A stretch of 64,000 nucleotides of DNA from a virus (lineage: Duplodnaviria; Caudoviricetes): positions 64,001-128,000 of the IMG/VR virus record IMGVR_UViG_3300029305_004678, one strand, 5' to 3'. A program made the position numbers and the translations under genes. A model generated the notes under the pieces. The model was not told the origin of the DNA, made no database searches, and worked only from the letters and a program-made list of their open reading frames with translations. Positions 6,401 to 35,687 of this stretch are shown here, in pieces (the stretch's first letter is position 1; every line of letters starts with the position of its first letter).

Positions 6401-9400
6401 CTTGTTCTTAAACCAGTCAGTAGCAACACCAAGCAGCGAGAAACCAGCTCCAAGGCCTACTGCACCCAGTCCTATTTTAGCAATAGTACTTCCCTTAGCT
6501 CCAAGGAATTCATAAATTCCACCAAGAGCAGTGGAGAAGAATCCATCTTTATTTTTCTTTTTCTTCTTCTCAGCCTTATCTCCCATGAAGAAACCGACTA
6601 ATCTAGACATAAGAGAAGCAGTCTTTTCTGTGGAATCGGCAGTTTTATCTCTTGCTTCATCATCTTGCTGATCTTTTGTTTCAGCGTTTTTAGCTTCAAT
6701 GCTGTCATCATCACCCTTACCACTAGGAAGGGCCAATACTTTACCTTCTACACCAGAACTACTAGTATTTCCAGGAAGTTCGATAGCACCAGATGCTTTG
6801 GTTTTAAAAGATATAGGATTATCTACGATAACAGGAGTAGAACCGGGATTTGCTATAAGCTGAACACCCTGGCTAATTAGAGACAAATGTTGGAGGGCAG
6901 CGTCAGACTTATTCTCCATATTTTCTCTATAAATTTTAGTTAAATTACGATCATCTTCAATTTTCTGAAGAGCTAATTCTTCCTTTTTCTCAGCCTCTTC
7001 ATCAGGATCGTAACTCTCACCTTTTTTCTTAATGCGGTTAGCCAACTCGGCTTCCGCAGTCATCATAATTTGTCTTATGTCTTTTCTTCCAGATATTTTA
7101 CGTCCACCAAGAAGATCAGACAGTATCTTATTCTTCTCATCTTTATCCATATCAAAACTAGAAATTGCATCCATAGAAGTTTTGACAGTGGTAATTCTAG
7201 AAGCAATAAGTTTATTGAGTTCATTCATTTGGTCAGTAGATAATTCACCTTTATCTACTAACTTTCTAAGAGCAGCATCAAAAGCTGCAGCATCGCCATT
7301 AGCCGCAAGTTTAGTAAGCTTTGTAATTTTATTAACTCCTACTATTTCATATAGAGATCTACCATCTTTACCAGTATTCTTATTGAAATAGGAGGAAATA
7401 GTTTTACTACTAGCTTGTCTTGCCTCACCTAAATTTTCACCTAATTCTTTTCTAGAATTAAGCTGGTTTCCTGTGAGAGAAGCAAGATTCTGAAGATCTT
7501 CTATATCCATACCTGCAATGATCTCATCTTGCTCTCTCATCTTATCTCTACCAAAAGGCAGTTTAATATTATTATCCTTTCTCCACTGTAATCTCTCTTC
7601 AGCAGTCATATTATACGCAGTTCCCTTCTGTATCTGACGTGTCTTAATATGAGTACCAAGATTACCTATGGCTTTGAAAGGAAGTGCAAAAGCAGCTTTA
7701 CCAACGTTAAGGGGTACTTTTACTATACCACCTATAACTTTAGTCAGAGGTTTAAAAACTCTTTCTCTCATAAAATCAGCCGCAGGAATACCGATAGATC
7801 TTTCAAACATATCTGCTAAATGATCTTTGACTCCATTAGTGATATTATTGATGCCATTCTTAATCATCTGACTAAACGGATCTAAGAACTTCTTCAGATT
7901 ATCAAAGATATTTTTCTTTGCGTATTCTTTAAAGTCATCAATGATTTCATGAACCTTCTTGATAGCAGGATTGAGCATGCCTTCTTTAAAAGCACCAAAG
8001 ATACCATTATCATCAGGATCATCTTCCTTGCCAAACATTAATTCATGGAAGGTATTAGTAGATGTAATCATACCAAGACCTGCACCAAGAGCTGCATTTC
8101 CAAGCAGTCCAAAAGGTCCAGTCAAGATACCAATACCAGCACCCACTAATGCATTAGGGGCAGACTTCTTAATAAACTTAGAAATCTTTTCCTTATTTTC
8201 GGGGCCAATAACTCCATCTTCTCCGAAGAGGAAATTATTAACAGTCTCACTATTTTTCAGTAATCCAACACCAGCACCGACAGCAGCACCGGCCAAAGGA
8301 CCCATGCCAGTCACTAATCCAAGAATACCACCAGCAACACCAAAATCAATAGCATCGCCTCCAGCTTTCTTGAAATAATCCTGAATTTTCTTAGGAATAA
8401 TACCTCCAATATGTCCATCTTCAGTATCTTCACCAAAAACAATTCTCTGAAGTGTCTGACTATTATCGAGAATAGAAATACCAGCACCAGCAACAGCTCC
8501 AAGTAAAGGATTAATACCAGTTAATAAACCAGCACCAAGACCCAATACACCACCAGCTGCAACTTTAGATGCTCCAGCCTTATTCTCGTTATAAATCTTG
8601 TATAGAGAATCTTTAAGCTTATTCAAATCTACTGTACCCTTGGCATTTAAACCAATTTTACCACTCATAGACTTGAAAGCTCTTACTATTCTACTTCTAT
8701 CTTTTCTCTCACCTGCAAGCATCTTATTCTGCTTCTTACGATCAGAAGTTGCAGGAATAATTACTTCACCAGGAGAGATCATAGTTAAACCACGTTTGGT
8801 AACAACTCTACCATAAGCACTTTCAACAATATTGTCGTAGAACTCATCGTTATCCTGTACCATTTCGCGATTATCTATATTTTCCACTTCATCTGCAGTT
8901 ACTACTCCACCATTTGAAACTTTATTAGCAATATTGGTAAATTTAGCAGATGCAGATTTGAACGCCTTACCAAATGTATTACCTACTGCTGTTTTAGCTC
9001 TATTAAAACCTCTTCCTGCAGTAGATTTGATTTCATTCCATACGGGCTTTACGTATGGTTCAACTTTAGATTTAAGGAACTCTTCGAATTTATCAAACTT
9101 AAGAGCTTTGGCTATTTTTTCAGTAATATTATTAAAAGAGCTTTTCATTTCATTTAGCATCTTTTGCCATACACCGATCTTTTTACCATGCTCATCGACA
9201 AATTCTTCATTTTCTCCAAAGAATACTTTGAATAAGCTCTCATCTGCTTTTTCAAGCATCTTGGTCATATAATTTATGGGAGAAGAAAATACATCAGCAA
9301 GACCTTTACCAATAGTAGTAAACATTCTTCCTACTGGAGATTTATCAAATACACCAGATAATTTATCGAAGAACTCTTTTACTTTATTGGATTCTTCAAG

Positions 9401-32474: not shown

Positions 32475-32540
32475 ACTATTCTCCTTCATAATAAAAATTA
32501 AAATATATGGGAGGCAACTTACGCCACCTCCCAATTATTA

Positions 32541-35500
32541 TCAGCAATAGCTTGCTTGAGCAGCTCTAATAGCTTCAACCTGTTCAGGTGTATATCTAGA
32601 TCTACTCAATTGAACAAGAGTATTCATATTGATAATAGTATCACGTTTGTGATTATATGAGTTATTGAACATACCATCATTCTTAGAAATATACATAGAA
32701 TTTCTAGGATTGAAGACATATTCTGCAGAACGTTGAAAATCTTTATTGATGATTAGCATGATGTTTACGAATGTTCACACGGGTCGTTAATCCGTGCAGT
32801 TCTCTTATGAACTTCTACATGTTTCCATGTAGGCCAGACTATATCTACATCTTCATTTATGGAGAATAAATGAAGAGCTTCCCACTTCGAACTCACTTGA
32901 GCTCTACTCCCATTTCAGGGATAGTCGTTGAACGTTCCTCATATAGAGGCTTCGCTGCTGATTAGCATATCTATATAAAGACTTAGCCTCCCAGCAATTC
33001 AAGAAGATTTCGATATAGTGTCACCACTATATAGCCCTAATTTAATTAAGGTATCTCCATCAAAGTCTGCAGCAAGACCTTCGAGTACGGCCACAGGCAT
33101 TCCCATAGTGAATCCTACAGAAATTTCTGTACAATACATTTGAAGTATTCCACCCCATAGTGTTCACGTAGGTCGTTAATCTACGTCGTTCTCTTATGAA
33201 CTGCTATATGTTTCCACATAGATCAGACTATATCTACATCTCTATACTTGGAGAAGCATAGAGAGCTTCCCACTTCGAACTCACTTGAGTTCTACTCCCA
33301 TTTCATGGATAGTCGTTGAACCTTCCTCTTATATAAGAGGCTTGGCTGCTGATTAGCATGCTCTTTTGAGTTTAGCCTTCCAGCAATTCAAGAAGATTTC
33401 AATACAATATTACTATTGTATAGCCCAGGTTTATTTAGGGATATGGTTGGATTTCTATTAATTAAAATCGGAATACCTCTATCATAGGATTTAATAATAC
33501 CTTCGATTATATTTACAATAATCGGATTAGGTTCATGCATGGATTCATAGAGCAGTTTATATGCATCATTATATCTCATGAAGTAAGACTTCTGTAAGAT
33601 ATTAATAATAGTCATCTGCAATAATCCACACAAACATGGATAACTCAGAGAAACCTCATCGATTCTCTTAGAAGGGTCTGGTGCTATAACAGAACGTGCT
33701 GTAAAGTTATCACGTGTTCACATAGGATCGCAACTCCTATGCAGTTCTCTTATGAACTTCTACATGTTTCCATGCAGGTCAGACTATATCTTAATCTCTT
33801 ATAAAGAGATTTTGGCATTTCGATTTAATAGGACTTACACTGGACCTTGATGCCTAACCCCATTAGCTTGGGCTCTACGTCCTTACGGACTAGTCGTTGA
33901 ACCTTTCTATTTAGATAATAGCAATCTTCAAATATAGACATCCAGTATCTTGATCGATATCTGGCTCTATATTATGGATCTTACAATTCATAATATCTTC
34001 GGGGAAGTCTTTTACATCTAGATATACCTTAGTGCAAAGCTCTTTAGCTTGTTCTAGCGTTATATCTTCAGAAGCTGTACCAAAGACATCATAAATATTA
34101 ATTATTTTATATTTGTATGGATTTTGTCTAACTCCCGGATTTTGGTGCTTAGCAAAATCTGAAAGAGTCATATACAACTTACTCATACATCTATCCTCCA
34201 AATAGACTTGGCTGCTGATTAGCATTATACAAATAATTGTAATATTATTTTCTCATATAAATATATAGCTATTGACATTTCTATATAAAGACAATATAAA
34301 GATATTAATATAAGAAGTAAAATTACTATTATAAAAACATAGTTTTTCTTCATATATTAAGCCTCCCAGCAATTAACCAAAAACATACTTAAAGATTGCT
34401 CTTTAAGCAGCCATTTTTACATAGCGTCCACCAAAGAGTTGTCTTATCATTAAGACTACCATAATTTTCATTATGGATTAGACTATATCTTATCCCTCAG
34501 CTTTACCTGCTAGGGATCCTCCCACTTCGGAGTCATAACTATTTATGACTCCTACTCTACTCGGTTACTTACAAGAGTTTTTCATCTTGCTACCCTTTCG
34601 ATAGTCGTTGAACGTTCTCTATTATATAGAGCTTCGCTGCTGATTAGCATGCTCTTTCGAGTTTAGCCTTCCAGCAATTCAAGAGGTTATTTTCTACGGA
34701 TTTCGCCGTAGGGATCCATAAGATAACTCTAGATCCTTTCTTGCCCGAGATAATCTTAGTAATCTCTTCATAAAGCTCCATGTACTTCATTTGGAGATCA
34801 AAAAGAAGTGTATCTTTAGGCTTTTTCTTTTTACCCATTTTTGTATTATCGTCGTTGATTTGGGCTACAAGTTTTACAATCAAATAATAGATTGCATTAG
34901 TTCCCTCATAATGAAGAACACCACCATCGAGACGATAAGGTCTTAAATGAATAGTAAAAACTGGAATAGATTGGATAAAGACTTTCTCTCTATCATTCAT
35001 GATACTCTCATAGTAATCACGTTTATTAGGCTTCTTATAGAGATAATACTCCATAATTTCATCAAATCTTTCATAGAAATCGAGCATACCGATTCCAAAG
35101 AATGGTTCATCCTTTGGCCTCTTGAAGTCAATTTCATGCCCATCCTCATCCTTCTTATTGACAGGAGTAATGATGTTTTTGAAGTCTTTCTCGCCAATAA
35201 AGAATGCAATAGACATATAAAGATTAGGATGAATAATATGATAAGGATCCTTGAGTACAGGATATCCAAACATACCGAAGTTATCACCTTTAAATGTGAC
35301 CTTAGTTCCACAAACGGGGCAAGTCTCACCCTGATTAAATCTGGCCTTAAGATGACCACAATCGCAACGATATCGATTACTACCTTCATCAATATCTTGT
35401 AGGGTGGGGCCATATTTGGTTGAGAAAATACCGTTAGGATCTTTAAGATCATACTTAATAGCTTTTGGAGAACTAATTATAAAACCATCACCTGATAGTA

Positions 35501-35603
35501 CATCACTGCGACGTTCTTTATCAATATTAATTCTCTCGAGTCTGGTCTCGTAATCGAAAGCTCCCGATCGCGAGTACCTTGTATTCACTTTTATTTCTGC
35601 CAT
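32541..35603 (-). CDS. RNA polymerase beta' N-terminal/catalytic subunit, 501 aa, in 5 exons (35603-34731, 34447-34423, 33710-33437, 33155-33049, 32767-32541)
   Basis: Exons sum to 1506 nt in one frame and restore RpoC motifs: Zn site CDCG...CPVC, ISGKKGS|IRQLFGGR-Y|NFTARSVI, INRNPTISL|GGILQM and GLAADFDGDTL|NIML. Confidence 0.92.
32768..33048 (-). mobile_element. Group I intron 4 (281 nt, no ORF)
   Basis: 5' exon ends in U paired to G in P1 (CCU|UAAU-UAA-AUUAGGG); P/Q AAUUGCUGG/AAUCAGCAG; R/S UCAACGACUA/GAUAUAGUC; terminal G at 32768; inserted 4 nt after the DFDGD codons. Confidence 0.92.
33156..33436 (-). mobile_element. Group I intron 3 (281 nt, no ORF)
   Basis: P1 CCU/GGG; IGS ACCU pairs with 3' exon GGGU (P10); full P,Q,R,S core; terminal G at 33156; inserted just after NRNPT. 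Confidence 0.9.
33911..34186 (-). CDS. Intron-encoded 91-aa soluble protein, not a homing endonuclease (alternative start 34225 gives 104 aa)
   Basis: GGAGG RBS 8 nt before ATG; sits in the P6a loop; no GIY-YIG, HNH, LAGLIDADG or PD-(D/E)xK motif visible. Confidence 0.75.
   Translation of the reverse strand: MSKLYMTLSDFAKHQNPGVRQNPYKYKIINIYDVFGTASEDITLEQAKELCTKVYLDVKDFPEDIMNCKIHNIEPDIDQDTGCLYLKIAII
34225..34353 (-). CDS. Intron-encoded 42-aa hydrophobic membrane peptide (absent from ORF track)
   Basis: MKKNYVFIIVILLLILISLYCLYIEMSIAIYLYEKIILQLFV; GGGAGG 8 nt upstream; the ORF fills the P5 insertion almost exactly. Confidence 0.55.
   Translation of the reverse strand: MKKNYVFIIVILLLILISLYCLYIEMSIAIYLYEKIILQLFV
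34272..34300 (+). promoter_or_regulatory. Antisense sigmaA/sigma70-consensus promoter inside intron 2
   Basis: TTGACA (34272-34277), 17-nt spacer, TATAAA (34295-34300). Confidence 0.45.
34448..34730 (-). mobile_element. Group I intron 1 (283 nt, no ORF)
   Basis: P1 GGAUCU/GGAUCC with U-G pair; P10 AGAGUUAUCUUAU pairs 12/13 with 3' exon AUAAGACAACUCU; P,Q,R,S core; terminal G at 34448. Confidence 0.93.
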
Positions 35604-35687
35604 ATTTTCATAACACCTCCAAAATGCTACTGTATTGAATAGTTAGAGGAGGGGTTAATATTAACCCCTCCTCAATAATTTAGAGGT

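Follow-up and report, generated by a model that had tools for sequence, protein, structure and literature searches.

A gene on the minus strand of a bacteriophage genome fragment, at positions 35603..32541 of the window, very probably encodes, in five exons separated by four group I introns, the N-terminal half of beta-prime, which bears the Mg-binding DFDGD motif, of a phage multisubunit RNA polymerase (RNAP), taken to be the non-virion enzyme. The window is the whole 64,000-nucleotide (nt) stretch analyzed, that is, bases 64001-128000 of the 159.8-kb IMG/VR virus record IMGVR_UViG_3300029305_004678, which has a G+C content of ∼34% and an estimated completeness of 65%. When the five exons are joined and translated, they yield a 1506-nt reading frame of 501 amino acids (aa) plus a stop codon, with zero internal stops. 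The unspliced open reading frame (ORF) that starts at 35603 extends for 319 codons and then reaches a stop within non-coding-looking sequence. The parts of the gene are as follows, with scores given against the Rfam group I intron model RF00028.

34731..35603, minus strand: exon 1, 873 nt, aa 1-291, ending ...GKKGS; ATG at 35603 after GGAGG
34448..34730, minus strand: intron 1, 283 nt, ORF-less group I intron; 95.4 bits
34423..34447, minus strand: exon 2, a 25-nt micro-exon encoding IRQLFGGR plus 1 nt
33711..34422, minus strand: intron 2, 712 nt, group I core with insertions in the P5 and P6 loops
34228..34353, minus strand: hydrophobic 42-aa ORF within the intron 2 P5-loop insertion; unlikely to be a gene
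33914..34186, minus strand: 91-aa ORF in the P6 loop of intron 2; a conserved, acidic orphan
33437..33710, minus strand: exon 3, 274 nt, YNFTARSVI...INRNPTIS
33156..33436, minus strand: intron 3, 281 nt, ORF-less group I intron; 84.6 bits
33049..33155, minus strand: exon 4, 107 nt, LGGILQMY...ADFDGDT
32768..33048, minus strand: intron 4, 281 nt, ORF-less group I intron just past the DFDGD codons; 95.8 bits
32541..32767, minus strand: exon 5, 227 nt including the stop codon, LNIMLIINKDF..., with a GC-rich hairpin and then a T run downstream of it

The spliced product contains the DFDGD motif together with the flanking beta-prime blocks (GKxGxxR...GxRxxxSxRSVI and NRxPT), and because of DFDGD it is assigned to the catalytic half of beta-prime. 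Exon 1 matches PHROG 2987, “RNA polymerase beta subunit” (E = 1e-19), and exon 3 shows a weak match, short of the curated cut-off, to the Pfam family RNA_pol_Rpb1_2 (E = 9e-4). In tblastn comparisons, the top phage matches were phiR1-37 g274 and AR9 g270. The former, an uninterrupted gene annotated “RpoC, N-terminus,” aligns over residues 42-477 with 31% identity (E = 3e-54), and the latter, an orthologue, aligns over aa 119-430 (E = 3e-37). The sole match in AR9 is g270, annotated as the N-terminal subunit of the non-virion RNAP beta-prime, and the assignment to the non-virion enzyme, which is provisional, follows this match and annotation. A previous examination of the same DNA without database searches, hereafter the sequence-only reading, had identified the gene as an RNAP catalytic beta-prime subunit, an identification that the DFDGD motif, PHROG 2987 and the orthology to AR9 g270 and phiR1-37 g274 all bear out.

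The exon boundaries are placed by homology and by the splice-site rules of group I introns. Introns 1 to 4 split, in order, the motifs GKKGS|IRQ, FGGR^YNF, NRNPTIS^LGG and DFDGDT^LN (here and below, | denotes an insertion point between two codons and ^ one that interrupts a codon), just as the sequence-only reading had described. Alignment with the intron-free genes of phiR1-37 (g274) and of a metagenomic relative, L014, is free of gaps across every one of the four junctions. In L014, this protein is encoded in an uninterrupted frame, with query residues 270-498 aligned in a single segment that reads through GKKGAVRGLMGGRFNFSARSVI, INRNPTINYGGILQMYC and AADYDGDTLT. All four introns are preceded by U and have G as the final base (omega G) at the frame-restoring junctions, in agreement with the earlier claim of a terminal G. 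Other placements that keep the U and the G, examined by eye, lose either the frame or the homology. Gap-free homology, the U/G rule and the failure of the alternatives together make the junctions as well supported as sequence alone allows, and the claim that they produce a continuous, unbroken 501-aa frame stands.

The ribozyme cores were examined with RF00028, for which the gathering score is 50 bits. Three of the four introns exceed this score on the minus strand, at 34740-34459 (95.4 bits), 33446-33204 (84.6 bits) and 33058-32815 (95.8 bits), with E-values from 1e-21 to 1e-24. Intron 2 yields a partial match only (33810-33762, 26.8 bits, E = 5e-4), which spans P8-P7'-P9; it falls below the threshold because two of its loops are expanded, by an AT-rich insertion of ∼140 nt in the P5 loop and another of ∼300 nt in the P6 loop. 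The core blocks of intron 2 are nevertheless all there, in order: AATTGCTGG (P4 5' strand), CAGCAG (P4 3' strand), GTTCAACGACTA (J6/7-P7), AGATATAGTC (P7 3' strand) and GGAAAC (P9 loop), with spacings of 157 and 315 nt compared with ∼37 and ∼29 nt in introns 1, 3 and 4. When both insertions are removed, the remaining core, of 302 nt, can be aligned over its whole length with introns 1, 3 and 4, at 56 to 69% identity. RNAalifold applied to the four introns recovers P2, P3, P4, P5, P6, P8, P9 and a 3' hairpin, with compensatory changes, for example, in P3, P6 and P8. Thus, the four group I cores reported earlier hold up, three by the covariance model and intron 2 by the order of its core blocks, the alignment and RNAalifold.

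Short segments of the intron cores, at 34592-34650 and 33169-33246, show 88 to 93% identity with introns from phages of Campylobacter (CP21-like), Lactococcus (r1t), Staphylococcus, Clostridioides and Bacillus (AR9). Very different phages have the ribozyme core in common.

The splice-site pairings agree with this assignment in part. When the short P1 regions were folded, the splice-site U.G fell within the minimum-energy P1 hairpin in introns 1, 2 and 4; intron 1 pairs GGAUCU with GGAUCC, including the U.G, and intron 4 forms a 7-bp P1 with its U.G. The P10 pairing of intron 1, read from the sequence, is a perfect 6 bp (UCUUAU/AUAAGA). Several points, however, weigh against the four-intron interpretation and its endonuclease-free character. 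In the minimum-energy P1 of intron 3, CCC pairs with GGG and leaves the splice-site U unpaired; the register that contains the U.G (CCU|A with UGGG) is the one found in the Rfam alignment. P10, read in the same manner, is weak in introns 2 to 4 (2 to 5 bp, partly offset). Consequently, of the pairings claimed by the sequence-only reading for every intron, the U-G 5' site is found in the favored fold of introns 1, 2 and 4 and in an alternative register of intron 3, and P10 is convincing for intron 1. The splicing of all four introns is itself deduced from the DNA sequence. Furthermore, the record is only ∼65% complete, so that the absent portion of the genome could encode a helper endonuclease, and the 91-aa ORF of intron 2 could be an unrecognized endonuclease or maturase.

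To place the four introns among their relatives, the interruptions of 13 IMG/VR loci that encode the same subunit (41 to 75% identity in exon 1) were mapped by tblastn and by reading of the junctions, alongside AR9 and phiR1-37. Positions follow the numbering of the present protein; these junctions, too, were taken from the sequence, and for two of them, both in L015, the exact nucleotide is uncertain.

L014 and phiR1-37: no introns
L011-L013 (the closest relatives): 423|424 only
L023: 421|422
L022: 386|387 (with a 213-aa HNH_3 gene on the opposite strand) and 421|422
L018/L020: 392^393 (with a 340-aa HNH_3/NUMOD4 gene) and 421^422
L019: 392^393 and 423|424
L015-L017: 298|299, ∼382/383, ∼392/393 and 425|426 (with HNH-like ORFs of 211 or 252 aa)
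AR9: 424|425
Present phage: 291|292, 299^300, 390^391 and 426^427

The 15 genes thus contain between zero and four introns each, at ∼13 positions within 136 codons, and 6 of these ∼13 positions lie no more than 16 nt from the DFDGD codons. None of the four positions in the present phage is common to any of the 14 relatives. In five of the relatives, Rfam, applied with an E-value threshold, recovered just one of their introns, a poor yield that agrees with the published description of RF00028 as incomplete for phage introns (PMC11878797); the other interruptions were called introns by homology to the present introns, by core motifs or by embedded HNH genes. The L022 intron at NRN|PT (7192-8230 of that locus) harbors its 213-aa HNH_3/NUMOD4 gene at 7415-8053, on the strand opposite to both the host gene and the ribozyme.

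The introns of the present gene are related to each other and to introns located elsewhere in this set. Introns 3 and 4 share 82% identity over 269 nt, and both use a GGG guide against exons that end in CCU. A distinctive 3' tail of ∼50 nt is common to introns 2, 3 and 4 and to the L011 and L023 introns, which occupy other positions, and over the 3' half of intron 2 the identity to the L011 intron is 79%; intron 1 lacks the tail. Because the same lineage sits elsewhere in relatives, these similarities point to at least introns 2, 3 and 4 being members of one mobile lineage that would have moved to new positions, beyond homing into a cognate site.

The favored model is that four phage-type (IA2-like) group I ribozymes reside in the pre-mRNA and that each would excise itself by the guanosine-initiated two-step transesterification, restoring the 501-aa frame. 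The introns would be selfish passengers, gathered by repeated invasion of the most conserved codons, and they may persist because their imprecise loss from catalytic codons would be lethal, an idea that has been stated for phage introns (PMC12908238). The close relatives with no intron or one intron indicate that the introns are dispensable for the clade, which is why they are read as selfish passengers. Since three of the introns are ORF-less, they could spread only passively or with help in trans. The candidate routes are co-conversion beside a cut made by the endonuclease of another intron or another phage, reverse splicing, and imprecise repair after a nearby cut.

Intron positions so close to those of potential competitors also raise the question of immunity: endonuclease-free introns could be kept because each splits the DNA target of the homing endonucleases of co-infecting relatives, conferring protection without a nuclease of their own. 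In the relatives, introns close to NRNPT in this gene do encode HNH endonucleases, and three of the four present introns lie within 4 to 14 nt of the positions of other introns in the relatives. There is also a precedent for such conflict, in which the intron-encoded HNH endonuclease of PhiPA3 cuts the phiKZ RNAP gene and lowers the fitness of phiKZ (PMC11620839). However, any selfish intron would be expected to cluster in conserved motifs, and no competitor intron is known close to site 1 (291|292); a protective role is regarded as a tentative and rather unlikely explanation.

The capacity of the introns to encode proteins bears on how they might move. Introns 1, 3 and 4 contain no ORF above 46 aa, and neither ORF of intron 2 includes a nuclease domain detectable with Pfam or PHROG profiles. 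Profile searches of the 159.8-kb record identified no GIY-YIG and no classical HNH (PF01844) domain, LAGLIDADG models not having been run on it, and a single HNH_3 gene, which lies within an intron of another gene. The larger ORF of intron 2, of 91 aa, occupies the P6 loop, a classical site for intron ORFs, and is preceded by GGAGG 7 nt upstream. Its homologues are 45 to 90% identical, and in a profile search of 1.8 billion representatives the only credible matches were 10 clusters of 79 to 115 aa. The family, made up of proteins of ∼79 to 104 aa, remains conserved at identities as low as ∼30 to 45% and has the conserved blocks PGVRQNPYKYKI and EP...LYLKIxII. The protein itself has a pI of ∼5, and the family is acidic (pI ∼5-6). 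Two homologues open with “MLISSQ,” which is the translated intron core ATGCTAATCAGCAGC, and a frameshifted homologue extends into the translated 3' intron core. These extensions, the only source of context for the homologues, suggest that they are intron-borne as well.

Searches of Pfam, PHROGs, PADLOC and the ESM Atlas returned no significant match for the 91-aa ORF, and scans of IMG/VR and of JGI metagenome contigs found no relatives. Of the five AlphaFold2 (AF2) models, the best reached a pLDDT of 82 and the other four 40 to 62, so that the structure is to be read as moderately reliable; it matched nothing in the PDB (Foldseek E ≥ 0.46; VIA-align Z ≤ 3.5), and in BFVD it showed only weak matches, to uncharacterized phage proteins. 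The 42-aa ORF was rejected as a gene. The P5-loop insertion that contains it is 81% A+T, what looks like its Shine-Dalgarno sequence is the conserved ribozyme P4/P5 core sequence GGGAGGCU, and it has no homologue in a collection of 5.8 billion protein clusters. A two-gene, toxin-antitoxin-like cargo in intron 2 was accordingly not accepted, given that the 42-aa ORF is without a homologue, though it is not refuted.

The introns of the gene thus contain no recognizable homing endonuclease yet carry an ORF for an intron-encoded protein. The sequence-only reading had described all four as lacking any homing endonuclease; this description is sound with respect to recognizable nuclease domains and is only partly shown in view of the conserved 91-aa orphan, which it had not taken into account. 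In the broadest form of the argument, one endonuclease-free lineage would hop among catalytic-motif positions, its members would serve as “intron armor” against the homing endonucleases of competitors, and the 91-aa protein would be a new kind of cargo of an intron, such as an inhibitor or mobility factor. Taken as a whole, this scenario is speculative and the odds are against it.

Alternatively, the 91-aa ORF might encode a new, very small homing or mobility protein, be it an endonuclease, the partner of a nickase or a maturase, in which case the gene would not be endonuclease-free. Its place in the P6 loop, its own GGAGG, the conservation of the family to ∼30-45% identity at constant length and the apparently intron-borne homologues are all compatible with such a function. 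This possibility is nonetheless doubtful: the protein has no nuclease motif and is unmatched in the databases listed above, apart from the weak BFVD matches, its acidity (pI ∼5) is unusual for a DNA-binding nuclease, and 91 aa is well short of the endonuclease ORFs of AR9, of the relatives and of a second intron cluster in the same record (∼185 to 369 aa).

By the exon structure, splicing of all four introns is predicted to be required for the subunit, and, with internal exons of 25, 274 and 107 nt, the skipping of any one shifts the frame. Exon 4 is a plausible candidate for such skipping, since introns 3 and 4 have the GGG guide and the CCU| site in common. The need for splicing could also be taken to mean that four splicing events act as a gate or timer for production of the late polymerase, the gate having been proposed in the sequence-only reading. 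Exon skipping is documented for Twort orf142 and for the SIOphi polymerase, and introns have been put forward as “molecular on-switches” (PMC11878797). Conversely, L014, L011 and L023 manage with no intron or a single one in the same gene, and no regulatory element or other sign of regulated splicing was found in the sequence, which makes a gate improbable.

A decaying pseudogene or a set of unspliced interruptions is hardly credible, given that every exon is open and conserved and the catalytic motifs are preserved, that the ribozyme cores are intact as well (E ∼1e-24), and that the genome needs the subunit, of which tblastn found no second copy in the phage comparisons. Three further candidates were rejected. 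Inteins would require in-frame Hint domains, whereas the interruptions hold stops and ribozyme cores; natural splitting of the subunit is incompatible with 8-aa and 35-aa exons that have no starts; and an assembly artifact does not account for the same kind of structure in relatives.

Group I introns in the RNAP genes of jumbo phages, multi-intron phage genes and intron-rich phage genomes are all known already, and the present gene is a dense example of them. The sequence-only reading listed RNAP introns in phiKZ- and AR9-like phages as known, correctly according to the annotation of AR9 g270 and the PhiPA3 intron (PMC11620839). AR9 g270 is the nearest counterpart, being an orthologue with a group I intron in the DFDGD codons, from the same phage lineage, in which the beta and beta-prime subunits are split. 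It differs in having one intron, at DYDG|DVLN, 7 nt upstream of the present intron 4, that encodes the HNH endonuclease g271, whereas the present phage has four introns and none with a recognizable endonuclease. Similarly, the phiKZ-like phage PhiPA3 has a group I intron at a conserved site of an RNAP subunit gene, but a single one, with an active HNH endonuclease, gp210, that mediates competition (PMC11620839); the four introns described here are mostly ORF-less. The virion-polymerase paralogue of the beta-prime N-terminal gene, in the same phage group, also attracts several self-splicing introns; unlike the present ones, these encode endonucleases, and one of them belongs to group II.

Among more distant genes, Twort orf142, with three group I introns (Landthaler & Shub 1999, cited in PMC11878797), similarly combines several ORF-less IA2-type introns with short internal exons and a risk of skipping, and polymerase and terminase genes of the Bastillevirinae contain two or three introns (PMC11878797). 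These are other genes, with three introns at most. The crAss-like phages of the Zeta group and the Jug phages are gut phages with genomes that group I introns have heavily invaded. The former include a capsid gene split into five pieces and reach 14 introns in a genome (PMC7886860), and the latter have a mean of 18.5 (PMC12880540); both belong to other phage orders with other target genes, and an AR9-like RNAP beta-prime N-terminal gene is not among the examples read in these two sources. The density of introns, which the sequence-only reading had considered notable, is not exceptional: in L015-L017, too, the same stretch of 136 codons is interrupted four times, and the crAss-like capsid gene and the Jug genomes provide further parallels.

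The comparative pattern of intron positions and the orphan intron ORF are the most useful by-products of this case. The clade constitutes a natural allele series, with zero to four introns at many closely spaced positions, that can be used to study by what routes group I introns without endonucleases arrive at new sites, and whether occupancy of a site protects against the endonucleases of competitors. The 91-aa family is a small, conserved, uncharacterized and apparently intron-borne protein that is worth expressing. There is also a consequence for annotation, namely, that gene callers will break up this essential polymerase subunit and list a 319-aa fragment together with debris.

Five other RF00028 matches form a second cluster in the same record, at C1:23046-26304 (96.6, 95.0, 60.1, 51.0 and 26.7 bits). 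The corresponding intron-rich gene spans C1:22463-26771 (loci L001, L004 and L006-L008) and has about five introns, two of which are only ∼30 nt apart. Its exons show a weak match to PHROG 25005, “RNA polymerase” (E = 6e-7), and one of them a weak local tblastn match to AR9 g226, the fifth subunit of the non-virion RNAP (E = 3e-6); two other exons gave no tblastn match to phages. One intron of this cluster holds a 369-aa HNH_3/NUMOD4 gene, the only such gene in the record. Together, four introns in the one gene and about five in the other amount to at least nine introns in two polymerase subunit genes of this phage.

Finally, both ends of the beta-prime gene are bordered by hairpins. Directly after the stop codon, a GGGAGG...CCTCCC hairpin with a T run occupies 32500-32540 on the minus strand, which suggests that the transcription unit ends with the intron-rich gene. 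Just upstream of the start of the gene, at 35620-35650 on the same strand, lies a strong GC-rich hairpin (GAGGAGGGG-loop-CCCCTCCTC). Its similarity to the Rfam ssNA-helicase RNA is at chance level (22 bits, E = 0.8), and it is probably the terminator of the preceding gene.

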